A stretch of 64,000 nt of DNA, taken from contig OZ004607.1 of NCBI GenBank assembly GCA_963924565.1, positions 30,132,001 through 30,196,000 of the forward strand, given 5' to 3'. Source of the stretch: Ascidiella aspersa (lineage: Eukaryota). The notes under the pieces were generated by a model that was given only the letters and a program-made list of their open reading frames with translations, had not been told where the DNA came from and did no database searches. Shown piece after piece: positions 3,773 through 52,700 of the stretch. Every line of letters starts with the position of its first letter. The stretch's first letter is position 1. The position numbers and the translations under genes are program-made.

Positions 3773-8412
<4,640 letters not shown>

Positions 8413-9400
8413 TTCGACTGTTTTTTCTGCAAAACTAACGAAATCCTTCTTGATATAAAACAAGTTGCACTGGTGCAGGACTGCAGGTATTAACACAATC
8501 TATAGGTTTGACGCTGCCTTTTAAAAACACATTTTTTAAAAAACTCACAAACATACTTTCGAAACAGGCCAAGAGCAAAACGACAAAAGCTACTGTTAGT
8601 CTCGAATAAAATGCCTAAAAAGAGCTTAGCCTATTTTGTAAAATAAAAGCAGACATAAATGCCTTATTGCTTTAAGCATGTTGCACCCCCGCAAGATTCT
8701 CATCACTGCCTAACGCATTCGCGTCGGTAGCGTGTTTATAGAACCGGCGCTGACCTTTCGAGTCTAACCTTAAGCAAACAAGAGTCATTCAATAAAGGCC
8801 ACTATATCACCTGACTTTTCAGTCACCTGATTTGACGATGTTTGCTCAACCGGCGCTTTCTCCGACTGATCTTAAGTGCGATATCTACGATTTTCTAAAC
8901 AATTACCGGATTAAAAAATGTATATATTAGACGTGCTCGTCGTGCTGTTATTGTGAATTACGGTTATAATAAACCCATTTACTTTATACGTTGGTTTCTA
9001 TTCTATTAGCACTGAATAATTTTAGTACTGTAAGTTTTGTGCAATAAACAATCAAAAAATTGAAAATGGAAATCATATATGCAGGGGGGAGAATTTTCTA
9101 AAAGCTACGTTATTTTTTTACGATGATTAGTTGTACAAATTAAGGTTTTGTTCGTGACCCACGCTATCCAAAGCTTCGCCACCCCTTCCCGGTGTGATGA
9201 ACAGATTTACCCAAAGCCGATAAACGCGAAACTCACCCATTTTAAGAAAGCAAAATGTCAATAAAGTAAGTTGACACATTAAAGAAAGGATGTTAGGCTT
9301 GCTGCCTTCAATATCATGTCAGCTAGGTATAATGCTTCACACTGACCGCTATTGCTCAGTTAGACTTTTCAACAAAAATGTCTGTGGCTTTCGGCGGCGC

Positions 9401-13559: not shown

Positions 13560-13706
13560 AGCACGGGAAATGCCAATCATTTACGCTGTTTAATTTGCAT
13601 CTGTTGGTCTGTTGAGCATAAAGTAAAGGAAAAGCCTGTGTTGAGTATACAGTAGGTTCGCGACTACATCTAAACTTAAAGGGTTCAAATAAATTATTAT
13701 CATAGG
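13560..13706 (+). promoter_or_regulatory. CYP-B proximal promoter / 5'UTR: conserved CCAAT box and probable short 5'UTR intron (paralog 33180-33326)
   Basis: gcacgggaaatgccaatca is identical in CYP-B and CYP-C. It is followed by a GTAAAG/GTAAGG donor-like site and a catag/tccag acceptor-like site ~80 nt later. Confidence 0.45.
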
Positions 13707-13791
13707 TTATATAGTTGGCTTGGTCCATTCCTCGAGTCAACGAATTTATTTGGCCGTTGCCAATACCCCCCGCCAGTCAACGAAGTACAAT

Positions 13792-19031: not shown

Positions 19032-19622
19032 TCACGCGTATCTGCGTTTCGTACAGCTTTTTGTGTTTCAGAAATCGGATTTGCGTCTCTTTTGGTTATC
19101 TATATCTTCTGGTAATTTTTATAAAGTTTACCAATGCGATCGCTAAAACGTACATATCAAACTGTGCACATCAACTCACGAAATAAAACAAAAGCCCTTT
19201 GGTCCAACTTCCCATTACAGCTATAGAAAAAACACGTTTATCTTTCTAGTTTAGTGTAAGTAAATTAAATTTTTATTAGCAGAATGGGTCGCTTAAGTTT
19301 ATGTTACACAAGAAAAATGTTCTAAAACTATGTGCGTATATATATTTTATAGTGATATCTAGCATTTTGTCTGTGTCAGCTTGAGTTATTGCGATTAAGT
19401 CGTTGGGAATTACCGTTCCTCTTTTTGATCTGCTATTAGTTTTTTCTTCCACGTATATCACTGTTTTTAGTTAGTCGCCTTACGATAAGCCTGCAACAGC
19501 GCACAGGAAACGATGGGAGCACAAATCCGTGACATTGACATTGTTCCGTTGCAGCTGGTGTGTTGCACTGCAGCAATTACATTACTTGCCCACTTGTAAA
19601 GTGTGACTTAAGTGCCTGATAG

Positions 19623-20095
19623 CAGTGTTGTAATGACTTAAGTCATTGACTTGACTTAAGTGCACTTAAGTCACTGTTTTCAAATGACTTGACTTGACTT
19701 AAGTCCTTTGACCAAAATGACTTGACTTGACTTAAGTCTTTTGGCAAATAACTTAGGAGTAAATTAAGTGTTTTTCATTAAAATTTATCTCAAGTTTTGC
19801 ATATTAAACACTTTAATTGCTGTGTATTGCGTATGTGTTTTTTTTAGTTAAATTGTTGCTTATAATCGGACGAGTTTACCAATTTTAATAGTTTAATAAT
19901 TTACTTTTATGTCAATGACATGACTTGAAATTGACTTGCTCTCATAATGACTTGGGGACTTGACTTGGGCAACAGATGACTTGGACTGGGACTTGACTTG
20001 TTATTTTTGCAAAAGACTTGACTTGGAATTAAGTTATTTTTCAAATGACTTGACTTGGACTTGAGTCATTTCAAAATGACTTGTTTACAACACTG
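19623..20095. mobile_element. hAT-type MITE with GACTT subterminal arrays
   Basis: Perfect 11-bp TIR cagtgttgtaa/ttacaacactg; perfect 8-bp TSD cctgatag; empty paralogous site near 38415. Related decayed copies at ~17311-17775, 35050-35260, 36221-36580 and 44157-44507. Confidence 0.9.
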
Positions 20096-20460
20096 CCTGA
20101 TAGTCACAACCGCGACGGTGATTGTCAACATTTTCCTCTTGTTTACTTTCTTGTATGTTTATTTGAATTACCTGAATCGTTAAAGCCACATTGAAGTGAT
20201 AAAACGAGTCGAAAAGTTTTTGATGTTGTTTTCTGACATTCAACTCTGTACATTGAGTTAATTGCAATAAAAAAAAACAATAGCTTCAAGTTGAACTGTC
20301 GACATTTTTAATTGTGTATGAGTTTCACATTTGTTTTAACGTACATCCTTGTATTATATAGAATGATCCGATACTTGAAGCAATATAAATTGTTACCGCT
20401 CTGAAATAAAACCTTGCTCTGGTGTAATTAATTCGTGTCATTAACATAAATATTTTAAAA

Positions 20461-20549
20461 GAACAGATGCCTTTCTGCCGCGCATTCATCCACGAGATGG
20501 GGCTCTTTCCTTATTCGTGTTTGATCTGATCGCCAGCAAAAGAATTTAG
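20461..20549 (+). pseudogene. Collapsed CYP relic (exon 8 start fused to exon 9 pieces)
   Basis: Reads EQMPFCRAFIHEM, then an MELF-like patch (atggggctctttc), then FDLIASKRI-stop; compare CYP-B EQMPYCSAFIHEI ... MELF ... FDLIATERI-stop. Confidence 0.75.
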
Positions 20550-21689
20550 TCAACGTATTTGTCTTTCAGATTTATTTAATACTTCAGGCATACTTACACA
20601 AGAACATTAAACAATTAAACCAAAGCGATTCGGCCTGTATATTTTCCATTATAGAAATCAAATAGCCAATGTATAATATTCTGGATTGGGGATGACCGAA
20701 TATAATAACAGGTATTCATTGTCCCGCTTGATACAAATTGTTTTCGATCGCTAGTTAATTTACACTACGAAAATAGGGCGTATAATATAAACATAACAAT
20801 CCATTTAGTTTATCTTTTGTATTTACGTCTATACAGTTCTTAGGCGGCATTACTTGTTGTCTTGGTTCCGAGCTATTTTTCGGGGTGCTGTCAACCCGTT
20901 TCGATTTGCCATGCCTAGCATTTGACCAGTTGTTAGTTCTTACGCGCGTGTTGCTACTAACTGTTATTAGACGCTAAACTATAAAGCCTGGAACAGGGCA
21001 TGACATGGAAGACGTGCGTAGCCCATAACGATGACGCTTTTGGTTGCAGCTGTGAGCGTTGTACTGCACCAACAGCACGCATACATTTGAAAGCCCAACT
21101 GCTTAGTCTGCAAGTCTCAACCTATACACAGTGAGTCATAATCATATTTTATCCTTTATTGATCATAATTGTCGCACAGAAGATTTTTTACGGGTTTAAG
21201 TATACTAGCACACCATAAAAGCTTCCAGTACAACTTACAGTAGCTGCTAAGGACAAAGTCAGGCCAAATTCAATTTTGAATTGATTACTTGTAAGCGTTA
21301 GACGAACTGCCTAAATTGCCGACTGCATGCTATTATACACAATATCAGAATTTTTTTTTTTTTCATGAAAAATACCTTAAATAGTTCGTGAGAACCAAAT
21401 GGCCGAATACGGAAGAGTAATGAGCCAACGACTTATGCCTAACTACGTGCAAATCTAATAAAAGCGCAGTGTTTTCTAATCTTCTTTACCTCACTGCGCA
21501 CCTGTAGACCTCTAACGAAATCTCATAATATATTAGTGTATTGCATTATAAATTTCATAATATATATTGTAATCGCTTATTGAAATGCAGTGCTATAATG
21601 GTGACTGCAAGCTTAGTTCTATAATATATGATTTTACACTTTTTCTGTTAATAACCGATCAGTTGGTAATCAAATGAAGTAAACAGAGC

Positions 21690-22075
21690 TCCCGCTGCGC
21701 CCGCGTCCAGCTTTGACTTTTCACCCAATTTGGCCTCTAACCTGGACCTCTGCACCATGTAAGTGAGAAAGAGGAAGAGACTCGATTTTTGCCAACTGTT
21801 CGCTGAGACAATTACTGGGACCCACCGAGAAAACTATTCATTTTACGTATATATGAGCATAATTATTTAAAAAAAAGGTTACGTTGAGCCAGTGGGCGCC
21901 TAAAAATGTTTGCAAAAAACGTTTACTTTGAATTTACGGTTTTCTTTAACCCTTGGATGAGTTTCAGCGCTAATCAGTTCCTTGTTCGCTCACTTCGGCG
22001 TCCTCAGGACCTTTGAGACAAGGGTACGAAATCGTCCAATCTCATTGTTTAAACGCGCTGCAGTAAGGCATCTTT
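21690..22075 (-). pseudogene. Decayed partial duplicate of CYP-A (exon 8 pieces, intron 8, part of exon 9)
   Basis: 21690-21832 matches CYP-A exon 9 (3828-3968) with indels. 21832-21960 matches CYP-A intron 8. 21993-22075 matches exon 8 fragments. 21303-21515 also matches the CYP-A downstream flank (2771-2990). Confidence 0.85.
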
Positions 22076-23420
22076 ATAGACAGGCCGGACCAATGAGCCA
22101 TGCCCAATGATTTTAATATTTCAACACTTTACCGCCACCAACTTAGTTAGCTCTTTTAAGCATGTTATGATGGCTTCCTAACAACGAAATCAGCATGAAT
22201 GATTGCATGTTGTAAAATTTAGGTAGAAAAATGCTTTTTTTCAGGTTGAAACTAGATTTTTTGGTGCTTACTATTTTTGTTTTATGTGTTTCAAAAAAAT
22301 ATTATTAGTGTACAAAATAGGGACAAGGGGAGTACTCTGACAGGTTAGCCAGTATTTTACAAAGTTAAAAGTTTTTAGGCTCTCCTTTAGTTGTGTACGT
22401 GAAAAAAATAAATAAAAAGGTACGGTTTACAAATTTTGTTCACCTTAAGATAACGAAAGCTGTTGGTATGTCAGGTGTCAGCATAATATTTTTTACATTT
22501 TCTGTACACCCTAAACGCCCCTCAGATAAAATTGTGCAAAACGTTAATAAATTGAGCAAGCTGCACCTTGACTTGTAAAAGTCACATTCTGTGTAACGGG
22601 ATTTGCCGTTAAACGAGCCTGACTTCGGTTGTGTAGGTAAAGAAGGGTCTCCTTCAAAAAACAATTGTGCCTTTTGTCTTTCTCGCAGATTGCTAAGCTT
22701 TGCTTTGTTAGTAAGAAGAATCCTTCAGTCCGTTTTAGCTAGGAAGTGAATTTCGATAGGTTAAGGTTTGCCAGGTTAAGGTCGATTTGTGATTGGCCGC
22801 ACTTCGTATTGCGTCTTTTGTATAGGTCTCTAAAAAGCGTGATAACTTTGATAATGCTATTTTTTGATAGTCGTGGTCACCATTTTTAAGACGGTTGATT
22901 GATTTTTCAACCGCATGTTATAGAACAACAAAATGCACAGATATAAAGTTGCCCTTTAAAACCATGGCTTTTAAATCAAAGTTTAGGCAATTCATTTGCA
23001 GGGCAACAAACGGTAAATGTAACTTGCAAATGTCAAAAAACATCGTTTGAAAAGAGTACTATATTTTATAAACACCCAAACATCAAAACAAAAAATCCCC
23101 AGTTATGGAGTACGAAAGACAGACGTGACGAACTGAAGATGTAATGCGTGGCGCAATTTTTGCCAATGTATTGGTTGGCGCAAAGTTTATTTGTTAGTTC
23201 ATAGCGTCCTTCGACAATTGGAAATGTTTTACGACATCCATACAAAATTGAGAGACTGTTTCGAGCAGTTGTTTTGCAAAAACCAAAGTGCCGTGCTTGC
23301 AAAAGACGTGGTATAACTAAATGTTAAACCTTTTAAGCTATTTTTTTTTTCAAATTACAGTACTTTGTAAGTTTGGTAAAACGCTACAGCGCTCAAATAG
23401 TACGCTTATCCAATTATCAC

Positions 23421-23847
23421 CATGGGTTGCCAGTTTGGATTTTTTAAAGCCAAATTTGAAAATTTAGGCTTTTTTTGAACCTCTTGGGATTTTTTATTGT
23501 CAAAAAAAAATCCAAATGAAATTTGGCTTTTTAAGGCTTTTTTTGTTTCATTCCAAAATTTCATGAGTTTATGTTAAGAAGAAATCAAACTATCACAAAA
23601 AGAGAAAAATTGCACAAAAAAATGTACAAAAAGAGATAAAATACCAATAAAATTTTATAAAAAGCGACAAAAAATTGAGAAAAATTGCCACAAAAAGAGA
23701 AAATCAATGTAAAAGCATGATCATTTATTGTATTTTTATTAATTTAGGGAAAAACATAGGCTTGTTAGAGTTTGTAGTAGATTTGGCTTTTTTTGGCTTT
23801 TTTTAGGTGAGATTGCCTTTTTTTATTTTTTCCATCTGGCCACCCTG
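23421..23847. mobile_element. hAT-type MITE
   Basis: Ends catgggttgccag / ctggccaccctg; perfect 8-bp TSD attatcac; ttggcttttt subterminal repeats. Confidence 0.85.
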
Positions 23848-24565
23848 ATTATCACAAAGCTGGTGGTTTATACAAGCTACACTTCGTTTTTTTGTCAGCA
23901 TCTTGTGACTTAATTGTAAATGACTTTACGAACCCGAGACGCAAGTTTTTCCAATGTGTTTGTTGGCTTAAAGTTTATAGTTGTTATCACCATAGGCGCC
24001 GAACGTGGGTGTGTAGAGCGTTTTTAGACGCCCTGGATTTTTGGCAGAGGCGTCAAAACGCCCTGGAATTTGACCAAGTTACTTGCGATTTATAGTGTGC
24101 AAATCACCTCTAATATAAATATCTATTTATCTAATATAAATATTTATTTAAGTCTGGAGTCGATCGTTTTGTAAAGCCGCTAGAAACCTTACGAAAACCG
24201 GGGAAAAAAGGTTTCTTACGTGCAATAGCGAGCTCCAAAATAATATGAAGACAGAGGTTTATTCCAGACAAAGAGTAAAAGGCGTGCTCAGCCAAGTGCG
24301 ACATGCTCAGCCAAGTGCAGTGCGCTATCGGCAAGTGTTTGTTCGATCGATTTCAAGCACACTACACAATATTCCATTTGTTTGTATGTTCCCATCATTA
24401 ACCAAAACAAAAGCTTAAAGTTCAAACTTTAAGCTTTTAGTTTAAGGAGTTTTGAACATGGGAAACATAACGCGTTCTAAAGATTATTTGGCCAACGCTT
24501 AATGTTGCCTGATATTGTGTTCACCAGTTAAAATAAGCGTTTAATGCAAAAGTCATTACTTTACA

Positions 24566-30441: not shown

Positions 30442-33385
30442 TATCGTGTTTATGGCTTTTGTTGTTCGTTGGCGTTTTTATAGAGTGAAGACGCGATACT
30501 CTCCATCGGAAGAAACACTGTTTACGTGTCTAATCAATTTTACTTTTAAAGAGAAATTTAAATATCCAGCGACAGACAGGACGCAAGCGCAGTGAGCCGT
30601 TTCTTTATGAAGAGCAGAGTAGATCGCCACAGACAGACACCAAACCTATAAACTTTATCAATTTTTGGCATTTATTCAAGTTGTTTTTGTAAAACCCTGC
30701 AGTCATATGATATACACACGACCGAACATCAAATAGGTGTCCTTTTTAAATTTTAAACTTAGTATTGTCATTCGGACATTGTGTGGCTTCAATGTAAATG
30801 CGTTATTAACTCGTGATGTGGTGCGTGCGTAATTTTTATCAATGTGTTTGTTGGCCCTTTGAGTTTTAGTTGTTATTCTTGAAAGAATGAAGACTGTTTT
30901 CCGACAGTGTTATAAAAATGAAGTTCAAACTTATTTGAGTAGTGTTGTCAGCAGTGTTCTAAAGAAGCCTAAAACAGGTTTGTTATACCTAAACGTTTCT
31001 TTGTAGAGGATGACACGCACCGAGTTGTGTTACATACTAGTAGTGGGCCATGACGCTGTTTTCAGTGGGCCACAGAGCTTTGCATACAGAGATATCAGAT
31101 GTCAGGTCATTATGAACACATAAGAGTCTGACACATAAATACCTAATGTTATGTTGGTGAAGTTATTTATTTTTACATTGTGTTAGATTTCTCGCCACCC
31201 AACGTGTGGTACGGATGCCGGGAAGGTTCTCCAAACGTAACAATCGCCTTGCTTACGTATTATTCATTGTTACTGTAATTGTTTTGGTTGCGCGCAGTAA
31301 TTTTGCCTGGCTTAGGACAGTGCTCCCTCTGCCCTCAACCGGTGTGCCCGTAGGTGTGTTACTTATGTTTCCGAATACTTTTAATCAGTCGAATTAACGC
31401 GAAAATGAACATCTTATAAAGGTAAGTATTTTGACCTTATGCAATGTTCCAGGTGTAAATTTATCAACTTCAATAATAATTTAAACTTTTTTAAAACCTA
31501 TGTTACCTTCTATCGTCATAAATCGAATACTGACTTAACCAACAGGAACTGCCAGAAGTATAAAAATACAACAATTGTTTTCAAATTTTACACCAACGTA
31601 GAAAGGGAGATTAACCATGCGTTCGAAAACAATATCATTGTAAATATATTATCGGCATTTTGTGATAGTGCAATTAGTCTTGGGAGTTGTTTCGAAAAAT
31701 ATCTGAAGCTACAAAATACAAAGCACCAATGTCCGGTTTAATTTTCCAAATGCTATTAAAAGCCCTCTGTTTTTCGTCAGCTATTGCAAGGGAGTATAAT
31801 TTTTAGGACTTGACTGGCTTCAGAAATTTTTAGAAAGTCTGTAAAACCGCAATTCAGAAGATAAAGCACTGTAATACATAAAATTTTCGGCGCATTTCAT
31901 TATGAACTGCTCCTTTTTCTATTGGCTGCCCATGATATTTGCTGCCCCTCTTTGTATATTGAGCTACTCGCCTGGGCGGTCCCAAGCCACGCCATCAAGT
32001 ATCGGGCGACGTAACACATTTGAAATAATGTACAAGCTTTATTAATTTATTTTGTTGTTGAATCTTGATGTTTTTCATTAAACGTTAATGGGCCAACGCC
32101 ATATTTTTATTAATTTAGTGGGCCATGAGCAAAAAAAGGTTGAAAACCCCTGTACTAGACTATTGCTTCCTAATATACTACACCGCGCTATTACACATAA
32201 AATATTCACGATAGGCGTATTTGCACTGCGATATTGTCTCCTTCGTACAAGTTTATAAAAGTTTATGCATAACTCTGTTTACGACACCACATAAAGTTTT
32301 TTTTTAATTTTTTTAGGTTTTTGATTTGGGTAAAACTTGAAAAGTGACGTCGCCAAATTGTTATAACATCACACCACAAAACAAGCAAACTTGACAAACC
32401 TGCTGTGAGTGGCCTAATGTAGTGCTCAACCTTTTTAGCTTACGGACCGGTAAAATTTCAAAACAAGTTTTGCGGACCGGTGGACCTTCAAAAATCAAAA
32501 TCAACCCAAAATGTAATTACGACAAAAGTATATGCAACTTAAAAGCAATAGAAACGTCAATTTAACAAGCAATTTGCTGCTGTCTTTTTGATATCATACG
32601 TGTTTTTCGTGGTTCATTGAAGTTTTTCACCTACAACTGGTTTTAAAGCGAAAGACTTAAACGAGTTGTAGCCTACTACAACACTTGCACCATTGTGACG
32701 AACAATAAAGTCAAAACCGACAGGAAAGTTGATGCGGACCGACGGTTGAGAACCACTGGAAACCGGCTCTAAATATTTTTTATAACATAATATATTCCTT
32801 ATAAAACAACCCATTTCCCTCTCAATTTTTTGTGTTTGCTATGTAACTCATTTGGTTTAAAACTGGTCGACGAAGCGAACAACGTCATGCAACAAATGTC
32901 TGGTGGAAATACACGCGATCTGAATGAGATTATTAATGATTGATGGGTCTGCATAAGCGCTTGCACTACACTAGTGATAGTGCAATTAAACCCAATACAC
33001 TTTAAAGTTTTGATGTCTGCTGCACAAAGACTGCAGGAAAGACAATTACACGATGGATCACCGAGCTACGACACCGTATCGACAAAAACATGTTGCAATT
33101 ATACCTTTCTCGTGTATATATAAGGCACAAAAGAATTTGTTTTGTTTCAGTCGCAGGTAACATCCTATAGCCTACATGGAGCACGGGAAATGCCAATCAC
33201 TTGTACGCTGTTTAAATTGCATTGGTGGTTTGTTTAGCATATAGTAAGGGAAAGACCTGGTGTTGAGTCTAGATCGGCAACTATATCTAAACCTAAATGG
33301 TTCAAATTAATTATTATCCTTCCAGGTTATATAATTGTCTTAATCCATTTGTCCAATCAACCTCCGCAAGCCAGCAAAGTACAAT

Positions 33386-36300
33386 ATGCTCGAATCAATT
33401 CAGGTCCTTCCTTCAATTTTGGTGGCAATGGTGTGCCTGATGTTGTTCTACTGGTATCGTAGACCAAAGGGAATGCCACCAGGTCCTAGGGGCATTCCAT
33501 TTCTCGGCGTTATACCTTTCCTGGGACGCAATCCGAAGGAAGTCTTTAAAACTTGGTCACAGCAATACGGCCCAGTTTTTACGGCACGCATGGGGCGCGA
33601 TGACTGGGTGATTCTGAATGACTTTGAATCTATAAACCAGGTATGTTATTTCCACTTGTAATTTGCAAAATAAAGTCGGTAAAATGAAAATAACTACTTT
33701 GTTCGACCGGTAGTCAGTAAAACATCTAAAACGTTGGTTGTCAACGGCAGACACTAAAAATATATTTGTAGAACAAAATTTGTCAAACATTGTATTTTTA
33801 GGTCAAAATTTGTCAAATTTCCAAATTTTGGGTCAAAATTTCTCATTTTTTAGGTAAAAAAATAATCGTCCGACTGACAATATTCTGTTGTTATATTTAA
33901 CAGGCTCTGGTCAAAAACGGCCACGCGTTTTCGGGTCGGCCATCCTACAAGATTTTAAAGGTCCTCTCGAAGTCTCTCGGAGTGGCCAACGTAGACTATG
34001 GCAAATTTTGGAAAGAACAGCGCAAATTCGGCCTAGTGACCCATCGTGGGTAAGTAAGGAAAAGGAGAAAGGGGATAACAAACCATCAATAATACCGGTC
34101 GTCGTCACAAGTACACCAAATTAGAAATAAGACCAAAACTGTAGGCTAACGAGTAAGTCGGAATAAGACCTACATCCGAATAAGACCCATATACACACCA
34201 GACAAGATATAATCAATCTCTTCCTTAACTCCGGACCACATCCCCATTTTCACCACAAATTCAACAATATTTCATAGTCACCCAACTTAAGTCCAGGCAA
34301 TTGTCTAAACTTAAACCAAGCCAAGGGTAAATAATCCAGTGTTATTAAAGCGGCGCCTAAACGTTAATCCCAGAACGGCCGTTGCAAAAGGGTATAGCGC
34401 CCAAACCTCCCTTTACCCACTCTGGTTTATTTAGAACTTATTCCGATGGCTTAAGGCAATATTCCGTTGTAGATATTATTGCCACTTCAGTTCTATTTTG
34501 TCGTTATAATCCTTTGCAAAAAATGTTGCTTTATATGTCTTAAAGGGTGCCCTGGCTAATCATATTGGCAAGATTTATATGAAATTTTTTTTGCATTTTT
34601 TTTAAGATTTGGGCTTGGAAAACGTATAATGGAAGACAGGATTATAGAAGAAGCCGGTTACTTAACTGAAGAAATCAGACGTAAAAACGGAAAACCTTTT
34701 TCTATTAAGGTACGAAAGATTTAATTTATGTTTTACATATCGTGCTAAATGATTGTTCGAAACGCGAAGCTCAAGTAATATAAGAGGAAAGTATATTAAT
34801 CATTACTGTATGTGATGAAGCCCTACTGATCGATTATACTGCTGTCGCGCTGTGAAAGCCTAAACTTGTTCAGCTTTGAAAGGAATGTGTGAAATGTGCT
34901 TCTAATTTGCAGACCTTGATGGCACACACTGTATCTAACGTCATTTGCGGCGTTGCGCTCGGAAGACGATTCGACTACGGCGACCAGTGGCTTGTCAGCC
35001 TTTTGGCACTTGTGGATAAATGGTAAATTTAGTCTGTTCAAATGCCTTAAGTCCCAGTCAAGTCATTGTGAAAGCAAGTCAACTTCAAGTCATGCATTGA
35101 CATAAAAGTAAAAGTCGAACTATTAATAAAATTTGGTGGCTTGAACCCCTCCGATTATAAGCAACAATTCAAGTAAACAATAACATAAAATCAATACACA
35201 GCAAACAAGTTGTTTAACATGTAATACCTGAGATAAATTTTAATGAAAAACACATAAGGATTATACATTCAGGATGCTGTGTGCCAGCAATAAAACTCGA
35301 CATTGGAAACATGTATCCCGCATTACATTGTTGACTTTTGTGTTAAGATATTTTTTCATGTCAAACTTGCAAACTCTAACATATGTATAGAAACATATGA
35401 TGTACTTCTTTGTTTCGCAGGTACGGTGGTTCTCGCGAATCAATGGCGTTTTTAGCACTTCAGTTCGCACCCTGGCTGGAACACTTTCCTCCGTTTAGCA
35501 CAGCAATAAAAGACCTAGGCGTCGATGTCAATGCATTCTTGGGTGGGTTCACTTATCTATTCTATTACTATGTTTGTTTTTCGTGGAGCAGTGTCTCAAT
35601 CCAATATATTTTGCCTGTTTTAATCACGTTCTGGTAAAATACACCTAATACAACTATAAATTGAGAAAAGTGCGAATCTTTTTTCGGTCCAATGCGTTAC
35701 GTTACACTATTTTTTGCCGGTAGAAAACTTGTCATATACGTTGCAGTAGGAAGATTATTCTACTTTCAACCCTGGACAACACTTACAGTAGTTATTTTTG
35801 TACACACGATGTACAGATTTCAGAGACGTGCTATGGACATTTTATCTTGCAGTTTTTATAAATGAATATTAAAAATAGTGTCCGTGATGTCTCTTCAACC
35901 ACGGAAAAGCATATAGGTGGTGTGTGGAACCCGACGTGACATTAACTTCGTTATTCAGGTCGCTTTGAAGTTCTGGTCAAGGAGCACGAAGATAGTTTGG
36001 ATGCTGAAAATGTCCGAGACTTTATCGACGCCTTTCTTGTGGAAATGGACAAGGGAACAGATACGTTCACAGTGCGTGGTCAAATGATCGATGGACCGAC
36101 GCGATTTGTATACAAAAACAATTTGTGGCCGGGTTTTGTCGCACACGAAGCTTAATTTTTTAAAGCTGCATAACCCTTTGCAAAACAACTGGCTACGTGA
36201 AGTAGTTAAACACAACATACCACTGTTGTAATACCTTAAGTCATTTACTTGCCTTTGAGTCAATGACGATGACTTGACTTAAGTGCACTTAGGTTTCAGT

Positions 36301-37853
36301 TTTAAATGACTTGATTTAACTTAAGTATTTTAGGCAAAATGACTTGACCAAAGCAGTGGTGTGGGTTAGAACGGCCTTATACGTTTGGAAATTTGGTTTG
36401 CGCATGCGCACGTCGAACTCGGGAATCGGGTAGTTTTACGCAGTCTTACTTAAGTCCCGAGTCCGACAACAGCGTAGTATACCGGCTCCGCCGAGTCTCG
36501 AATCCCGAATCCTGAGTCCGACTTCTACTCAGCCTGCACTTGCCTTGACGTAAGTCTTTTAGATAACTGACTTAACTTGATCTTCGATTTGCACATAAAA
36601 CCATTTCCTTGCTATATGTTGGGTTTTGACTTGAGCAACTGATTACTTTTTAATAAAGAAAAACTCATAGCGCCACAGCGTATTGCGAGATTTCTACAGA
36701 TAATGCGAAATATTTGTCCTTTGTACAGAAACCTCAGCTCCTTCAATACCTAAGCGACCTGTTCCAAGGCGGGACCGAGACGACTTCAAGCACATTGGGC
36801 TGGTCGCTGCTCTGCCTTCTTCACTATCCACAGATGCAAGAGCGAATGTTTAGAGAAATCGTCGATGTCATGGGTACGAAATTCTAACTGAGCCGTTTTT
36901 AAGCCGGCCCTAACCAGCGTTTCGATAAGCATGAATAAAGGTCATGTTTAACACTTAATCAGCACCAATGCCTATTTGACACTCGCTTACGGTAACAAAT
37001 ATTAACAATAGACAAAAAGATAAAGTGTCTCAACCTTTTTTTTCATTTGATAACAGGCATACTTGCAAGGCATATCTGTGCGGCAGTAAAATACTTTACA
37101 CAGACGCCATACATATAGGCCTGTTTTCTCAAACAAGCTTGCACCTTGCTTTTAAAACGACCCTGACTTAGCATTTTAGACCGGCAACAAGGGTTCTTAT
37201 GAATTTTTAAGGCGAAGAGGGCCGTCCGACCTTCTCAATGAAGGAACAGATGCCTTACTGCAGCGCCTTTATTCACGAGATCGGACGATACCGGACTCTC
37301 CTTCCATTGGGCTTTTCGCATTGCACTACTGAAGACGTTAAACTGAATGGCTTTGTTATCAATAAGGGAACAACGGTAAAACAATAAAGTGAATGTTATT
37401 CAGATACTACAATCCAACAAGATACTTAATCAATATTTATAGTGATTGTAACAAAATATGCTCGGGTTAAACTGTAGCTGAGCAATATCTGTGTAAAGCT
37501 CTAATGCGAGATCATATAAAATATATTAAATAACACAGGTGATCTCCAACCTTTGGGCTGTTCACAACGACCCAAACCTGTTCGATGAACCTAACAAGTT
37601 TGACCCGGGCCGACACATCGACGAGAAAGGCAACTTCGTCAAGTCCAAGTACGTGATTCCCTTCTCAGTGGGTCCCCGCTATTGTCTCGGTGAACAGCTG
37701 GCAAAGATGGAGCTCTTTCTCGTTCTAACGTCCATGGTGCAGAGGTTTAAATTCGAGCCTAAGCCCGGCCAAATGCCTGATATAGAAAATGCTTCGAAAG
37801 GAACGATTTTTACGCCACGGGAATTCGATCTGATCGCCACTGAGAGATTGTAA
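33386..37853 (+). CDS. Cytochrome P450, clan 2 / CYP2-like (CYP-C; duplicate of CYP-B), 9 exons, ~490 aa
   Basis: Exons 33386-33640, 33904-34049, 34607-34709, 34913-35022, 35421-35542, 35959-36071, 36729-36873, 37212-37375, 37539-37853; open frame (1473 nt). DLFQGGTETTS, EIGR, PFSVGPRYCLG. Introns and flanks align with CYP-B. Confidence 0.93.
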
Positions 37854-38749
37854 ACATGTATATCTGCGTGTCGTACAGCTTTTTTTTCAGACATCGAATT
37901 TGCGTTTCTTTTAGTTTTATAAGGATAGCTTTTGTTAATTTTTTATAGACTTTACCGCTAAAGCGTACATATTAAACTGTGCACATGAACTCAAGAAATA
38001 ACACGAAAAAGCCCTTTGGTTCGCATTACAGCTATAGAAAAATTCACGTTTATTTTTCTATTTCAGTGTAAGTAAATTAAAATTTCTATTAGCACAATGA
38101 TTAGCTTAGAAGTTACACAAGACAAATGTTCTAACATTATGTGTGTATATATGTTTTATATTGGTATCTAGAATTTTTTCTGTGTCAGGTTGAGAGGTTG
38201 TAAAGTCTTGTTGAATTGCCGTTCCTCTATTTGACCTGCTACTTGTTTTCACTTCCGCACCTTTCACTGTTAATTGTATTTAGCCGCTTAGCGATAAGCC
38301 TGAAACAGGAAACATGGGGAGCACGAATTCGTGACATTGTTCCATTACAGCTGTGTGTATTGCACTGCAGCAATTGCTGACATGGCTTGTCCACTTGTAA
38401 AGCGCGACTTGGCTGCTTGATACCTACAAACACGACGGTGATTGTACGTATTGTCCTTTTATTGGCTCTACGTTCTTGTATGTTTATTTGAATTACCTGA
38501 ACATCGTAAAATTCAAATTAAAGTGATAAAACGAGTCGAAAAGTTTTTGTTGTTGTTTTTCTGACATCCAACTCTTTACGTTGAACTGTCGACATTTGTA
38601 ATTGTGTGTGAGTTTGACATTTACTTGGGCGTACGTCCTCGTATTATATAGACTAAATCGATACTTGAAGCAATTTGAGTTATTACCGCCCTGGAATAAA
38701 ACCTTGTTCTGGCATATTACTTCGTGACATTTAAATAAACATTTTGAAA

Positions 38750-43500: not shown

Positions 43501-46500
43501 GGGAAACCGATTAACAACTGAAAGTGTTTGAAGAAGCACTTATTCTAAACGATACAGTTGTAATACTGATTCAGCTATTGCAAACTAAAATGTCATTCTT
43601 AAAATAAAATTAAAAAACTAACGAAGAAGTGTTGTGAGAATACTTTAAATAGAAGGTTTTCCACGCAACCTTTTGGAAAACCATATGAAAAAAAGGTGTC
43701 CGATGTATGCGATTTACAAGAACAAAGCAATATTACTTAAACCCGAGTAAAGATTTAATGCGTACGACTACTGTTGGTCAGCATTTTGCAAGATCTCGAG
43801 AGCTCCACTTACCTCCGCCTCCTCTTAATGCTCCTCTGATGGTTGACGTAGGAGTTGGAGCGGGTGACCCCCGACTCTTCCTCCTCTGCATCAACTCCAT
43901 CCCGGTTGCCTTGCTCCACCTGGAAAGATCAACGTTTATGGCTTTCGGGTATACTTCGGGTATATACCAAACTATATAGTAATATTAAAATCAATCCCAG
44001 CGGTTTGAAGTAAATTCGTACAATACAGTGGCAGTTATGCATTTACAAAGTTTAGTTTCAATAGCAACAATATGCAATGTAAAACAACATCTGGATGTTG
44101 GAGCATGTTTGACCCATTCTAAACTAAGTTAATTATCCAATAATTGGCCGATTGAAACTGTGTTGTAAACTTTATAACTCAACTTCTCCAACTCATTCGT
44201 ACACTTGAGTCACTGTTTTAAAAAAGACTTGACTTCACTTACTTATTTTGAACAAATGACTTGGGTTGAAATAAAGTGTTGTCATTAAGCATTTTTTTTT
44301 CTAAATCTGAGTTATTTATTTCAGTTTGTGCACATAAAATAATTATTTAATTGAGTTATGACAGGGACTTAATTTGGAATTGACTTGCTGTTTATCCAAA
44401 AAGACTTGCCTCGTACTTAAGTTATTTAACAATTGATTGGACTTGACTTGTTTTTATAAAATATTGACTGGGACTTATGTCATTTTCAGAGGACTTGTTA
44501 CAACACTGTGAGTAGACTACACCATTGGTAAGACTAGCACTTACATTTTTCACGAGCTCCTGTATCACTGCGACACCGACCGCCTCCATAATTATAAAGG
44601 CCATACCAGCACAGTAGAACGACCAGCCGTACTCAACCCCGGACGTTTTTCCCTTGCTCGGCCTGTCGTTGCTCGAAATAAAGATGATAATTCCTAGAAC
44701 GTCGGTTAGGCCTTAAAAAATATATTTTTTGTAAGTTTTATTGCATTTTTACGAAACCGAGTGCCGTTTGAGGTATTAGTCACTAACACTAATAGCCTAA
44801 CTAATTAGTGTATTGAAAGTTAGCATTCTTACGTAGAATTTTCAAAAGTAGGGTATGTATACTCAACTCTTTTTTATAAAGGATTTACGTTCCAGGATTT
44901 TCATAAACTATATATGCGGATTATTATGTTTCGGGGCAAGGTCGGTAAAAAGTTAACCTAAAGGAAAGAAACTTTATTTTTAATCCTTTTATTTGAAAAA
45001 CATGCTACCAAAGGTACAAAAAGGTAAAAAATGCGCAAAAAATCAATCGCTAGCCGTCGAGCCGTCGTGGACGGAGAATGACTTTAGATATTAATTTTGC
45101 TCCCATGCGCACAATGCAATATAAATAAATCGATTACGCAAGGTTAGCAAAGGCTTTTTTCACTACTCATAACAAGCCCAATGCCGGGGGACCGCCTTTT
45201 TATCTAGCCTTGCGAATCACGTTATGACAACCGATTACCCGTTTTCTGTAGAGGCCTTGTTTGCAGCGCCACGCAAACGTAAACAGATTAAAGATTCGAC
45301 GCGAGTTTTTTTTTTTTGTATCCAAACTTATGTAACAAAATCGTATCTGCTTTTTTGTATGTGAAAAAATGTTCAAAAAAATGTTCGTTCATTTTTGCCT
45401 TTAACACAATTGCTTTGAGCAAAACAAGTCGCTTAAAAGTGGTTTCTCTATTAAAACACAAAAAAAGAGTACCGGCCCCTTTGAAGCATAAGAATTTGAG
45501 GTTGTAGTAAGACATAATAAGAATACCAAAGCCCATGCGAAAGGTTTCATTATGAACGTTTTGAATATTTTTTTTCCAGTACAGGCCTCATTTATTACAA
45601 AGAAATATCTGTAAATATTAGATGTAAATAATGCACAATACGTCAAAAAAATCTGCTAGAGCGCTAAGCGTCACAATAAGCTGGCCGTAAAATTAACGCA
45701 TAGCGTGTAACTCGTGTCAATCGCACCGAAATGTTGCAATAAAGCAACTACCCTGACTTAAAAAAAAATGCACTGACCGGATACCACGAGGTTGACGCCA
45801 GCAGCCAGCTTCAGCACGTGGCTCCTGGCGCTCCAGACTTGTGACGAAACGAGAAAGACGCAGCCGAGGAAGGCGAGGAAGACGCTTCCGATCGGGAAGA
45901 CGTTGATGTTGCGCAGGACGGCTGGAAAATGTCGTGTTGGGGCGTTTTGGTCAATGCAGGATAAGCTTAGCTTCTCGAAGTGCGTTTAAGTGGTATCAAG
46001 AAGCTGTTTGGGCTGATAACTGTTTTAGCGAGGCAATAGTGTCCGAGCTAATCTTCGCGGCACACAAGGCTCAAATATTACTTTTTGAAATAAGATTAGA
46101 ATTCTAGGTTTAGGAATTAGTTAGCATACATGGGCTACAATTTTTTTAACTACCTATGGTAGAAGTGACCGGACAAACTTAGCAGCGGATTATAGGATAC
46201 CATGTTGCAATTGAAATTCTTGTTGGTGGATCTAAAATCTGACGTAAAGTTGTTTAACGCCTATCGGCCACAAAGTATTCTTTCCAGTAATTAAATGGAT
46301 TTGAAGTTATCGCGCCATCAACAACAAACTACCTTATTACCCAATTAACTGCACTCATAAGCGATCGTCGGGTCTAACCAAGGTTCAAATCAAGAATAAA
46401 GGTAACCAAGTCGAAAAACATACCGATGACTAGCAGAGACGAAGTGGTTGCCTGGGCATCCCCAGACTGAGACGACGGCTGCAAGGATCTGCAAACTCCC

Positions 46501-47879
46501 ACACAAGATCCTAAAAGAAATTCAGATACTGGCGGTTTAGTTTTAAAATGCCTTTAAGAAAACTATTTTACACTTGGACGTTTTAATACTTATCCTGCGA
46601 CTATCCTGTCCGTTTAAGTTAAGTAATTTTATTTAGCCCAATAGGCGCTTTGCATATTGTGGCATGTTGCAATTTCTGTTAAGTAAACCTAAATAGCGTT
46701 ATTTTACCTTAATTTAAATCTGTTTTATGCGCGTTTCGCTACGTATCCTTTTAAACTGAAACTTTTGCCAATTTAACCTAAATTAACGCAAACTTATAAA
46801 TTGGTGACACCTAGTTTCAGCTGCCTATTTGCGCATGGGTTCGCAAAAGAACAACGATTGTTTTAAAGATAAACTGTAAGATATCATGTCTGACATCCGC
46901 CCTGTCTTAAAGGCAAAAAAATAGAAGAAAGAAACGGATACTGGGCGAAAAATTGGGGTTTCGATGAAAGCTTGCAGAATAACGGATGCGACAGGGCAGC
47001 AAAGGTTAAGAACCACATGATTTGAATAGAGAAAGCGAGTATAAACAGCCCACAATACCCTGATTGCAGCAAATCCTCCACAGTCCAGAGTGCGACTGGC
47101 GCTGCTTTCGAAGGATCTCGAAACCGTCGTCGCCCTCGGCGCGAGTTTTCACCGGCCAGACGGCTTGCTGTGTGAGCCAGTGATCCGTGAAGAGGGAGAC
47201 TATTAGCATGAGGAAGGCCGCCACCGAAATGCCGGACAGCAGGTGATGCTGGAAAGTTTTAGCAAAATAGTGTTTGGCTTTGGAACGTAACGATTCGAAA
47301 CCTAAAGTGATTTTGTCAGAATGCTAAACAGGCAACTGACCACACAAGGCTCAGGTCCATGCACAAAATTCAGCAATTTGTTAAAGAAAAACACAACAGC
47401 CTTCATTCAGTTTTGGATTGAAATCAACTTATTTTGCAAGGAATATTTCGTAACTTTCTAGTGGCCTAATTCGCTTTGGGACAAAAGAGGGTAACATTTT
47501 AGATATTTTTTATGCAAAGTTTAAGTGTGAAAATAACCGGTACAAAACAACAAACAAATTTATGCCCTACTCTTCGAATGTTATCCCATTTCGCGTATAG
47601 TCATTAAAAAATGGTTAAAAAATGTCTGGCGAAAAAATGTTACCTTGTGCCTTTTTTGTCCCCATAATTTGAAGTTTTTTTGCTCAACAGGAAATTACTA
47701 AAGGCAGCATTTACCTGATTAGTTTAACCTAACACTCAGCCAAACTCCCCAGTTAACTATGTCTATCGGCTATTCGTTTGTAAAGCACATAGACTACAAA
47801 ACAACACAATATAGTAAAATCAACAGACATAAGTCTTCACCCGAGCGCATTGCATCTTCTTCCACGCTTCGCATTCCAT
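40598..47879 (-). CDS. TARP / voltage-dependent calcium channel gamma subunit (CACNG, stargazin)-like claudin-superfamily protein, 9 exons, ~726 aa
   Basis: Exons 47879-47841 (least certain), 47248-47059, 46510-46424, 45921-45778, 44711-44545, 43919-43813, 43264-43115, 42354-41801, 41340-40598; phase-consistent (2181 nt). Motifs TDHWL, HSGLWRICC, VFPIGS, AGVNLVVSGLTDVLGIIIFISSN and YGWSFY match TARP TM1-TM4 signatures. C-terminus -VTAL is a class I PDZ-type ligand. Confidence 0.88.
42388..42871. mobile_element. hAT-type MITE in TARP intron 7
   Basis: TIR caggggtcggcaacc / ggttgccgaccactg; perfect 8-bp TSD ccgtaaac; cggaccgg subterminal repeats. A related element lies at ~32420-32758. Confidence 0.9.
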
Positions 47880-49364
47880 GATGGGCGCTGCGACTTGCAT
47901 GATTTCGCCGCGAATCCGCATTTATCGGGAATATCTCTAACCTTTTCGTTCGTAGCGCTGAGCAAGTTGTCACCATTTCCAGCAAAGAGCGATCAAACAG
48001 CGTCTACAGCAGCAACGTCTTTACAAATTCGACTGGATTTATTTCGACACACATACAGAAGCCTCTGAAAGCCAATGGGTTCCCCTGGGGTGGACAGTAG
48101 CGGTGCGAATCGATGCTCCGGCAGAATTGTCGTAAATTTAATGAGTTCTAGGCCAGAAGTAATGAAAGGAGCCAAGCGAAACGAGGGGCGATCCTTACTC
48201 CCCTCAAGGCCGTGTTATTAAAACACAAGCCGAAGAGGCAACGGGGTGAGACCTGCCGGCAACTTAATTATTACCTGGCCAGTGATTTGAATTTCTTACC
48301 GGGGCCAAATCAACGTTGACTACGGTCTGAGTAACCGGTGTGGACCAAACAAATCAAGAGATACAGACCGGTCACACATTAAAGGTCCGTTAGTGAGTCT
48401 CTCTGTTGTAACTCAAAACTAAATGAATGTTTAAGTTACATGGGAGAAGATTGTTTAAATCTCCGGACCTAAATACATTGCAAAAAGACACACAAAAAAA
48501 ACGCTTCGCACACAAAAAATAAATGGTCTTTGAAGCAAATTGTATAGCCAAACAAAATCATTTTACAGATGAAAAAAGAGAAATATTTGCCTGGCTAGAA
48601 AATAAATTACCTTTTTAGTAGTTCGCCACAGGCAGTGCAACGAACATAACACCAGTAAACGGCAAAAAAACTAATGAACACATTCGTTTTTTTTTCTACT
48701 GCGTTAAACACCAATGCGCCCTTCTTTCTGATAAGCAGCAGAACCTACAACTTTTAATCAAATGTGTCTTCATAGCTTATTCAACTTTGAGTAAAAAAAA
48801 ATCTTGGAAAAATAGCGTTCCTCACAATAATAAAGTAACCGACGGGGTAAATGAGCTATCAATCAAAATACCCACATCACCTGACAGGACAGAAAAAGTG
48901 TGCAAGCCATAGGTATTGGTGGCCTACTTTCCTACTTAAGATTAACTGCTAATTCGAAGTTAGCCTATAGTAGCCTATTAATTCTTTATCATCTAGTGCC
49001 GGTAACATTATTTTTCGCGTCGATATCTATTTTAGTTAATTGGCAACATCCTTATTTCTTAGTAACTTCATTGTTACATCATAACTGATATAATTTGCTA
49101 CTCGTTTTTTTTTTTAAATAGAACCATTTTTTATATTGGGGGTAAATCTGATATTCATATTTGTTAAAAGGGTAAAATATACAAAAAAAGGTTAAGAACC
49201 CCTGCTATAGAGCAAGCTAACGATCGACAATTCAGATATGACCGGCAGCAAATTGAGGTTAGGATAAATTGCAACACAAGTATTGGCCAAGATTGAGCGG
49301 TAAGGGTGCCTTGGTTAGCGTAAGCGGGTTGGGAATTGAGTTTTCTGTGAATCTAGGGTAATAT

Positions 49365-49540
49365 CGTAATAAAAATATCAAAGCCCACACAGAAGTAGGT
49401 ATCATCTTGAACGTTTCGAATAACTCTTTATGTTGAAAATGAATAAGGAGTTATTCGAAACGTTCAAGATGATACCTACTTCTGTATGGGCTTTGATATT
49501 TTTATTACGTTTTACTACAACCTCCAACCACTATGCTCCA
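49365..49540 (+). mobile_element. Palindromic non-coding insertion, copy 2
   Basis: 67-bp inverted arms 49365-49431 / 49443-49509 (2 mismatches), 11-nt loop, same tail ttactacaacctccaaccactatgctcca. Direct repeat tagggtaatatcgt at 49354-49367 and 49541-49554. Confidence 0.8.
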
Positions 49541-49794
49541 TAGGGTAATATCGTTTCGCGGGGAAGTAATGTCGCCGGGGGTAAACGTGACGCACAGAAG
49601 CAACATCTGGCTTTTGAGGATATTTGTATTAGGTAAACAATGAAGCCCATCAATTTGCGATGACGCTGTTTTATTGAATCTCTACGCGACGACAAAAAAT
49701 AGAGTTACTCTTGTCTATAAAAAAGTATGCTTCACATCAAAACGAAACGAGCGCTGGAAAAAGGAAGACGAAACGCAAAGGAAAAATACGCGAT

Positions 49795-52700
49795 TTAACT
49801 CGCAGAGATGGAGGGCAGAGATACTCCTGACTGCTGCTGCGGCTGCTGTTGTGTTATAAAGGTGGTCGACTCCGGTTCTTTCGTGCTCTCTTCCGAAGGT
49901 CCTTCGATGGCCGTCTGGTCGCTAAACGTATAGTTTTTCTTAGAAATCTGAACCTGTGGCTTAAGTCATATAGGTTAGTGCAAAATGCCTCTGGAGATAT
50001 TGTATATTGGGCTATCGCTCAAAAAAGCTTTAAATGAAAAACTTCACCTATTACGTTATAAATCTTGTGGAAAGCTAAACGATAGACACAGAAATTTTGG
50101 TTTTGGGATTATAAAGGGGTGTCATAAGTACTTCAGGTGTAACATTGCAGAATTTTTTTTTCAGCTTTCATGCGGCCCGCTGTCAAAAATAAATGCCCGA
50201 TCCTGATATAGAGAGACCGTTAAAAAATGTTAAGAAACCATTTCCTTCCTTAAAAAAAAACAAAAAAAAAAACATAACGATAATTTTCCCGCACCAAACT
50301 ACTTTTACGACTTTAAACGCCCAACCCACCTCGCTTGCTTGGCCTCCACGCTCAAGTGAGACTGGGGCGCCGACCTCGGGTTCTCGCGCGCCACCCTGTG
50401 GGCGCCCTTGACGCCGTTCATCTTGGCGAAGAGGAGCCGGAGCACCTTCTCCTTCTGCTCCCAGGTAAGATCGCGCACGTCCACCTTGGTGCCCAGGTTC
50501 TTCCTGTGAAAAAAACGAGCTTAGTGCAGTGCTATTCAACCTATGGTATGGTACGCGCTTGTGCGGACGAAAAATATTTTAATGCGAATGACAAACGTTG
50601 TGCGGATAAATGTGAAGATGAAAATGGTGCACATTATTATATTTCATAATGTTTAATACAGTAATTAAATAAGCTGGTGCGCCCACTTATGCTTTACAGG
50701 TACAGTAATAATATAGTCTCTCAGCGGTTCATTGCAGCTTGGGTTATACATTTTATATCGTTCAAGGCTTAGGCTCACGGTTTTAATACACAAACCCTTT
50801 CATTGTTATTTCACAAACAGGGAAAATGAAATGTTGCAAACTTAATGTGCTTGTTTCGTGCACGATTTGGATGAATTTTCTGTATGCCCAGACCTAGAAT
50901 TTTAATTCGAAATATGCAAGCTGCAATTGGGACTAATGTTTGTGGCGTCCTTTACATCGGCCACACAAGCTAATAAGTGCAATATATGGAGGGCCGATTG
51001 AAGCAGCGCGAATTTTTTTTATTTATTTGAGTCACCATGACTCCATTTCAATGTGACAAAACAACCTATTAAAATATAAAGAAATTATTTTTTTGAATTG
51101 TAAGGTGGAGCTAACAAACTAAGAGGCCTGAAATGAGCAACGTTAAATAGTTCAACTAAGTCTTTAGACGTGAAAGCTGATTTTGTTTACCCCAAAACGT
51201 GCAAATTACCTCTTTAAAGCAACTTCTTGTGACAATGACAATACCAGTATACTTATTTCTCAAAACCAACGACAATCGGTATAATTTAAAAAGTAAGCAA
51301 AAAAACAATTTAACAGGATAAGAAAATGCCCGCTCACCAGTTCTCCGCCTCGCTGAGGTCGGCGAACACACTGTTGGTGCTCTTCTCGGCACGCTGGAAC
51401 GTTCTGATCTTGGGAAACTCGGCCTGTCCGGCGTGGGCAGCCATCATCTTGCGGTTGTAGGCGTCCTGTGCCGCCTGAACGTACTGTGCCCTGCGAATAG
51501 CGTATCTTGTAATAGGGATAAACCGACCGAAAGACGCTGTAGGGATTTTGTGAGGCGGAAAAAAGATATTATACAAAATTGACCAGGAGATGATTTCTAC
51601 TGTGTGCCTTGCCGAATGCCTATCTTGTTAGAGTGCAGATCGACCGACAAATTTAATTCTAATGGTTTGCGTTTGTTTGCTGCAAGGTAACAGAATAGTA
51701 TTCTTTTTCGAAAACAGCTCTTTGGCAGATGTAAAACAAAATGGTAGAGGTAGAAACCTATTACTAGCATAAAAATGAGATAAATAATACTTAATCTAAC
51801 TTCATGACAAAATTAACACAAAACGGGTTGACTTGACGAAACAACAAAACACGCCAATTAAAGCACCCAAATCATTTATCAAAAAAATGCCTTTGACTAA
51901 TACAAACTTAAATCTAATTTAAACTAAACTGAATGGTTTGCCGAAAACAACTCATTAATAAGTATGATGTACATAGGTCGTTGCCAGTGTCGGTGTTTCC
52001 CCTACCTGTTTAGTGCGATCTCTGTGCGGACTTTTTCGAGTGCGTCGAGGAAAAATATCTCGAGTGTGGTTCTTTGCTCAACGATGTTCTTGGCGATCCT
52101 CTTTACCTGAACAATGACACATTATTAAGAGTTATATACAATCACACAGAAAGATCTATACACGCAAAGCATAGCCGTCAAACAAAACACAACGCAAAAA
52201 TGGTTTCACCAGACTTGACCTCAATAACCGCTTTGCTTTGAATTTACTTTCTAACAAAGACTTCGTTACGCAGATTTTGGTATACAACGGTTCGTAGCAA
52301 GCATCTATTTTACATAGTAACTTTTATGATATGATTTGTAATTGTTAACGTTTAGTTTTAGATTTACGCTGTACAAAATAGGTTTAAAAATCAGAATTTC
52401 CGGTTAAGGTTGACCCAAACTACCTTTCTTATATAAAAAAAATTGCTTTTTAAACTAGGAATTTACAAATAACGACTAGAAAAGAAGAGTTGAGTCAATA
52501 TTTTAAAAAAATACATGGCAATAAAGGATTTTTTTCCAGAACAGTGTTTGTTCGACTTACCTTGTTGGTTTCCTTATCCTTGAGCTGAAGTATGCGCTGG
52601 AGCCTCTTAATCTCGCCCTCACTCGCGGCCGTCTCAATGCGAGCCTTGTGTTCCACGATTTGCTTCTCTTCGCGAAATTCGCGCACCTGATCACAATACG

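Follow-up and report, generated by a model that had tools for sequence, protein, structure and literature searches.

Element insertions and genes in the window

The window, a stretch of 64,000 nucleotides from Ascidiella aspersa, contained a cluster of cytochrome P450 genes at 3773-7364 (minus strand), 13693-21779 and 32760-38712 (Pfam p450, E = 5e-33 and 1e-6), which included a duplicated block of ~19 kb. Two dispersed repeat families were present, D1/D12 (9970-12246 and 23095-23986) and D7/D19 (17389-20074, 35037-36348 and 44218-44485), as was a weak claudin/PMP22-like exon at 47009-47323 (minus strand, E = 7e-5, below cut-off). On the reversed strand of L033, positions 8141-8917 (minus strand) held an intronless frame that we take, by eye, to resemble a proteasome alpha subunit.

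Two fold-back insertions of ~190 bp with 14-bp target-site duplications were found among these features. Their positions are given here in element numbering, where U3 of the hammerhead core is 0 and the predicted cut falls between +31 and +32. The first was bounded on the plus strand by identical duplications at 49354-49367 and 49541-49554, the last 3 nt of the left copy also fitting the element end. It comprised an inverted arm at 49365-49431 (minus strand; +10 to +76, short 3' end), which lacked the first catalytic box, and a main arm at 49430-49540 (plus strand; -3 to +107, long 3' end). The main arm encoded the first 37 codons of a Penelope-like element (PLE) frame, with 95% identity to residues 1-37 of the intact protein P0001 described below (tblastn, E = 6e-16). 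In the second insertion, the arm with the whole motif lay at 5750-5827 (minus strand; -3 to +74, short end; core at 5818-5824), the inverted arm at 5827-5917 (plus strand; +18 to +108, long end) and the target-site duplication at 5739-5752 and 5918-5931 (minus strand). A third, older fragment of the same family (45479-45567, minus strand) was 84% identical and also lacked the first catalytic box. The PLE was represented in the window by stubs only, with no ORF body. The stretch at 49365-49540 is probably a short fold-back PLE insertion, in which the first ~110 element bases carry a minimal hammerhead motif with a U3-A8 pair; more than a thousand such short, hairpin-shaped PLE stubs occur in the genome.

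A minimal type I hammerhead motif

The original prediction had placed a hammerhead-like core on each strand, and its positions and layout proved exact: 49433-49464 (plus strand) and 5793-5824 (minus strand), each within a palindrome (arms 49365-49431/49443-49509 and 5750-5806/5827-5883). The minimal type I motif on the plus strand, delimited from its sequence and from covariation across five families, spanned 49431-49466. Its core, TTGAAAA at 49433-49439, was followed by an extra T at 49440, a helix II of 6 bp at 49441-49456 (GAATAA 49441-49446, loop GGAG, TTATTC 49451-49456), GAAA at 49457-49460, CG, T at 49463 and T at 49464. The palindromic ACGU occupied 49460-49463. Helix I paired UG (49431-49432) with CA (49465-49466), and the predicted cut lay between 49464 and 49465; an ATG at 49469-49471 (plus strand) stood 4 nt past it. 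The minus-strand copy had the loop AGAG.

The 32-nt motif pattern gave two matches in the window against none in 100 shuffles, and 668 exact matches in the 309-Mb genome against none for a reversed control. A search of the window with Rfam returned no hammerhead match; its nine matches, mostly to miRNA hairpin models, were all below the gathering score. The U3-A8 swap, the register and the palindromic ACGU held in the sequence of intact copies and in the five-family alignment. The cleavage triplet is GUU in the window subfamily and GUC in intact copies; position 17 therefore varies as H should. The original prediction had explained helix I as short through truncation at the fold-back. This was rejected, since helix I of intact elements also consists of 2 bp (UG/CA), beyond which lies an A-A mismatch.

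The motif and the palindrome are already known in kind. The U3-A8 variant accounts for ~1,300 hits in PLEs of Schistosoma mansoni (Cervera and de la Pena 2014, PMC4209133), and a natural U3-A8 has been reported, with in vitro activity cited (Perreault et al., PMC3088659); given these publications, the interest initially attached to the swap was overstated. Minimal PLE hammerheads have an extra nucleotide, G10.1-C11.1, a palindrome and, in D. virilis, a 2-bp helix I, and are described as having low activity, only as dimers (PMC4209133). The motif in A. aspersa shares with these ribozymes of metazoan PLE pLTRs the U3-A8 core, the extra nucleotide between 9 and 10.1, G10.1-C11.1, a large helix II, the palindromic 15.2-16.2 without helix III, thousands of solo copies and opposite-strand pairs. 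Its 2-bp helix I resembles the D. virilis variant, the published lower limit, where 4-5 bp is usual. It adds one more PLE family to those with a published core variant and is unremarkable as a ribozyme motif; its value lies in what it suggests about mechanism, through the 5' ends, the extra G and the pairing of short with long ends that are described below.

The host element

In longer copies the motif was preceded by sequence coding for RT and GIY-YIG, and intact family members were pLTR-ORF-pLTR units of ~2.67 kb that encoded RT and GIY-YIG. On this sequence evidence the hammerhead motif in the window is real and is carried by a PLE, as had been predicted. The 5' part of the ORF matched at only 16 places in the genome, among them a head-to-tail array on contig C9 with a period of 2,671 and two open 843-codon frames flanked by direct motif copies. 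An intact ORF of 840 aa (P0001) was located at L080:3133-5655. Its matches were to RVT_1 (E = 1.8e-9) and GIY-YIG (E = 7e-4), the latter under the Pfam cut-off (20.2 vs 22.6 bits). By eye, P0001 displayed a DKG motif and C-S-C...H...H (CCHH), and its RT-EN linker lacked a further zinc finger, in line with the clade definition in PMC8557442. The element is an EN+ PLE, most likely of the Penelope/Poseidon clade.

Other features of EN+ PLEs were also present, these being partial pLTR tandems, an inverted 5' copy and target duplication. Across loci the target duplications peaked at 12 bp, which distinguishes this family from rotifer Pen2/Pen2a and D. virilis Penelope (PMC3846280, PMC8557442, PMC2377424); lengths of 11-13 bp occurred in 20/74 loci, as against 3/74 mismatched controls. 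Inverted 5' copies, a tail and a putative TATATATA have been described in PLEs (PMC8557442, PMC3846280). The window copies do not fit a non-LTR retrozyme, which consists of short tandem repeat units that each bear a hammerhead: they are solo, and the sole tandem seen is the 2.67-kb coding unit.

A close likeness was to Poseidon of Anolis carolinensis (PAc), in which the ORF starts at stem II, reverse transcription starts at two internal sites, both strands are extended, and the hammerhead is protein-assisted and dispensable for insertion (Frangieh et al. 2024, PMC11167929). Like PAc, the present element combines RT with GIY-YIG at the C-terminus and has an ATG that opens stem II, 26 nt ahead of the cut. 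The two also agree in giving no reads at the cut site, and in the extension of both strands and the pair of internal RT starts, within an AC-rich stretch ~100-120 nt into the frame, that are proposed here. PAc, with C3-G8, was assayed in vitro; the present motif has U3-A8.

The C9 array (G000:C9:23486873-23495285; L076, L077) comprised four head-to-tail PLE units that were 99.8-99.9% identical. Their hammerheads had G10.1-U11.1, and all of their frames left the GIY-YIG reading near its end.

Covariation across families

Positions 3 and 8 were C-G in 1,966 genome matches, U-A in 1,467, C-A in 120 and U-G in 57 (reversed controls, 0-3), these counts being copy numbers of few families rather than independent events, with a search gap of 8-26 nt for C-G against 14. 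Hence 95% of the 3,610 matches were C-G or U-A. Among the mismatched forms listed, helix II matched in sequence that of the main families, a pattern expected if single copies had decayed. When 67 C-G copies were compared, 64 were sorted into four families (B-E) and 3 left outside. Family E is a PLE, 45% identical to P0001 (tblastn); families B-D were placed by a similar N-terminal peptide only, the likeness being judged by eye. The intact family described above is termed family A. At least four sister families with C3-G8 hammerheads, amounting to ~2,000 copies with the same spacing, were observed (L082-L111, L222-L261).

A gap-free alignment was made from 26 hand-picked copies of the five families, giving 22 distinct rows. 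The search patterns had fixed the core letters, G10.1 and Y11.1, so that the helices alone provide an unbiased test; helix I was in no pattern. Both inner helix I pairs were paired in 22/22 rows and had changed on both sides (G-C vs A-U; U-A, A-U and C-G). Helix II pairs 1-4 were also paired in 22/22 rows, with covariation at pairs 2-4, and the outer four helix I pairs formed in only 6-16 of the 22. The covariation score was 0.51, compared with 0.21 when shuffled and 0.07-0.15 when slid, although five families represent few independent events. N17 was C, U or A and never G in the 92 copies scored. The covariation expected of core and helices was thus found, both in the C-G or U-A pairs at positions 3 and 8 and in the inner pairs of helix I.

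The motif overlapped the ORF start in family A, where it was in frame with the ORF, and without a stop, in 27/29 copies. An ATG lay 9-13 nt after the predicted cut in the four sister families, opening a peptide similar (by eye) to that of family A, and 4-13 nt past it in all five. The invariant A9-U-G10.1 reading was closed by a stop in three of the five families: a stop preceded the next ATG in 34/38 copies of B, 7/10 of C and 4/6 of D. Protein coding is consequently not the only reason why the motif is kept.

These observations bear on whether the U3-A8 motif of family A is a non-cleaving vestige that came down from an active ancestor and survives only as a protein-coding start and promoter edge. 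Several features of family A would suit such a relic: helix I has just 2 bp, which folding does not predict to pair, the motif is almost always in frame and free of stops, the changes C3U and G8A are both silent in the ORF frame (CTG/TTG Leu, AAG/AAA Lys), and, as shown below, no census copy starts at the cut site and RNA starts or ends do not pile up there. Against this, the members of the 3-8 pair have changed together, both inner helix I pairs differ two-sidedly from the sister families, helix II retains its full 6 bp with a different sequence, the active D. virilis Penelope is also described with a 2-bp helix I (PMC4209133), and sister families retain the motif where a stop closes the frame. 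Loss of cleavage in this family is accordingly judged rather unlikely, although family A had the weakest helix I of the five families (predicted monomer pairing probability 0.0), and on that prediction its motif may be decaying.

Predicted folding

The window insertions were predicted to fold as hairpins of 57-67 bp (-93 and -109 kcal/mol), in which the inverted arm pairs with the 3' strand of helix II, GAAA and the cut site. These hairpins would bury half of the ribozyme and preclude its fold; the window copies are therefore likely to be inert as ribozymes. It is very improbable that the hairpins are functional host RNAs, either a miRNA precursor or a retrozyme. They are long and perfect, they drew weak Rfam miRNA matches, and family fragments do occur in host RNA; yet every Rfam score was under its gathering value (45.8 vs 74; 41.4 vs 98) and each copy stands alone between target-site duplications rather than in a tandem array.

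Another potential pairing was found in the intact element. A perfect 10-nt complement (L080:2976-2985 vs 3133-3142) links the last codons of the ORF with the helix I strand and core. It lies 160 nt upstream of the motif, was reached in 6/500 shuffles and pairs in the predicted read-through fold; in RNA of this kind the motif could be silenced by it. The idea of a conserved helix that masks the ribozyme was rejected, since the complement was confined to family A: it is absent from the ORF end of family E, and families B-D yielded no ORF end.

Ends of genomic copies

The ends of copies were surveyed using a downstream 24-mer only, which had 2,023 matches; the first 99 were taken, leaving 93 after removal of duplicates, all from the first 14.5 Mb of contig C1. 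Their 5' ends were concentrated just ahead of the core: 44 of the 93 fell at -5 to -2 (25 at -3, 10 at -5), with 9 further upstream, 5 at -1/0 and 35 spread over +1 to +42. The sequence TATATATA starts at -35, ~30 nt ahead of both peaks. TATA-like boxes were also seen 35-40 nt upstream of C3 in sister families B, D and E. In the sister families, the 5' pile-up and G were seen only in isolated cases, scored against divergent reference copies, and many copies extended further upstream.

A genomic signature of cleavage was not seen in the gapped, de-duplicated census, where 0/93 ends fell at +32; the 3 at +30 to +34 approximate the background of 35 junctions over 42 positions. An earlier, ungapped count of 6/99 at +32/+33 was discarded, 5 of these being indels in an A-run.

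A non-native G preceded 27/35 junctions at -3/-5, compared with 9/58 elsewhere (Fisher p = 3.5e-9); measured against the G frequency among non-T bases, the excess was also significant (p = 5e-10). The base preceding the extra G varied. Under a slightly different rule (36 cases), the G was present in 9/13 junctions with host DNA upstream and in 18/23 with an inverted arm upstream. Reverse transcriptases, including those of L1 and retroviruses, can copy an RNA cap as an extra G. We infer that the extra G likely marks the capped start of uncut RNA, copied by the RT. A cap-derived G in PLE copies did not come up in a limited search of the literature, and it may already be in print. The two window copies start at -3 without an extra G, and their 5' edge looks non-random, probably being the RNA's own start.

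The G and the 5' pile-up might instead have arisen without a cap, either from an untemplated base added by the RT at a structural stall, or where the 10-nt complement at the ORF end blocks the RT or drives template switching. The perfect match of that complement to the helix I strand and core, its rarity among shuffles and its pairing in the read-through fold lend this some substance. Other junctions, however, showed no such excess of G; the 2-nt distance between the peaks is what TATATATA would produce if used in two registers at about -30; and the ORF end of family E has no such complement. A capped start is preferred, and an origin by stalling or blockage is considered doubtful.

The 3' ends of the 93 copies were bimodal, with 37 at +64 to +90, 54 at +100 to +120 and 2 between. 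Palindromes combined one short and one long 3' end in 14/14 cases (p ~4e-5 if independent), and the window insertions did likewise (+76/+107 and +74/+108). A different origin of the palindromes, put forward for rotifer PLEs, is that self-priming occurs on an antisense template or that a single cDNA snaps back; the rotifer work argues for antisense self-priming and a bidirectional TATATATA promoter (PMC3846280). The 5' junctions of both window copies fit microhomology with the inverted arm, as this would lead one to expect. The strict combination of short and long outer ends is not predicted by it, nor is an extra G whose 5' position on the sense strand is fixed, even where host DNA lies upstream; moreover, the Anolis protein extends both strands in vitro (PMC11167929). 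Self-priming is thus held to be a fairly unlikely origin. In contrast to the antisense template favoured for rotifers, the stub ends suggest that the template was capped, uncut sense RNA, starting 3-5 nt before the core, and that both RT start sites were used in each palindrome.

RNA reads

Host RNA reads, nearly all of which lay only partly on the element, broke off at -3, +77, +89 and +109, of which -3, +77 and +109 coincide with the ends of genomic copies. In run X6, of which ~6% was read, L080 3299-3900 had a depth of 0 and only the stub region was deeply covered. D. virilis Penelope has a TATA-less promoter and a 5' intron; splicing that would supply a longer helix I in that manner was not apparent here, no same-strand joint being present among the 15 of 23 listed, although with nil coverage of the ORF this is a weak negative. 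A sigma-70 promoter scan found nothing, the model being irrelevant for a eukaryote. At +32, where the cut is predicted, 97 reads had loose ends. The unaligned letters were similar to sequence lying upstream in the element itself, and at +31 the reference departs from the majority of reads (C/T); we take these ends as probable clipping at the C/T difference.

A probable route to the stubs and a possible role for the hammerhead

These patterns are most likely explained as follows. A TATA-type promoter in the pLTR would set the start of a capped RNA 3 or 5 nt ahead of U3, so that the hammerhead forms the very 5' end of the element RNA. The element protein would nick both target strands ~12 bp apart, and cDNA would be primed on uncleaved RNA at two internal sites (~+75-84 and ~+105-113), one per strand. 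Such cDNA would often run off at the cap, copying it as an extra G, and two short cDNAs joined head to head would produce a palindrome of ~190 bp. Full copies would come only from read-through RNA of tandems. The hammerhead would be a weak cutter that needs a second copy, through ACGU pairing, and probably the element protein, as in Anolis Poseidon; cutting would strip the cap and first AUG from spare RNA and be dispensable for insertion.

The function of PLE hammerheads has been called unknown (PMC8557442). One speculative proposal, which as a whole is improbable, is that the PLE hammerhead, lying at the extreme 5' end of the RNA, acts as a decapping switch. A9-U-G10.1 would provide an upstream AUG, and the shared ATG past the cut the start codon. 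Uncut, capped RNA would serve as the template for insertion, while cut RNA would be translated, or destroyed once element protein binds; the stubs would then record both the switch and twin priming from two RT starts. A translation switch is conceivable because self-cleavage can drive cap-independent translation, as reported for viral UTRs and plant reporters (PMC13725137). The stub ends make both the role of the PLE hammerhead and the origin of the inverted ends accessible to simple assays; natural, intact ORFs of this PLE family are available in the genome.

Position of the stubs relative to host genes

The second stub (5739-5931) lay between exon-like pieces at 7209-7364 and 5512-5647 of a minus-strand P450 gene, and is likely to be intronic, in the sense of that gene. 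Exon-like frames at 49798-51627 (minus strand), with no Pfam match, ended ~250 nt from the insertion at 49354-49554. If that insertion falls within the 3' UTR of the gene, the hairpin would be part of the transcript, with the catalytic core present only as its complement.
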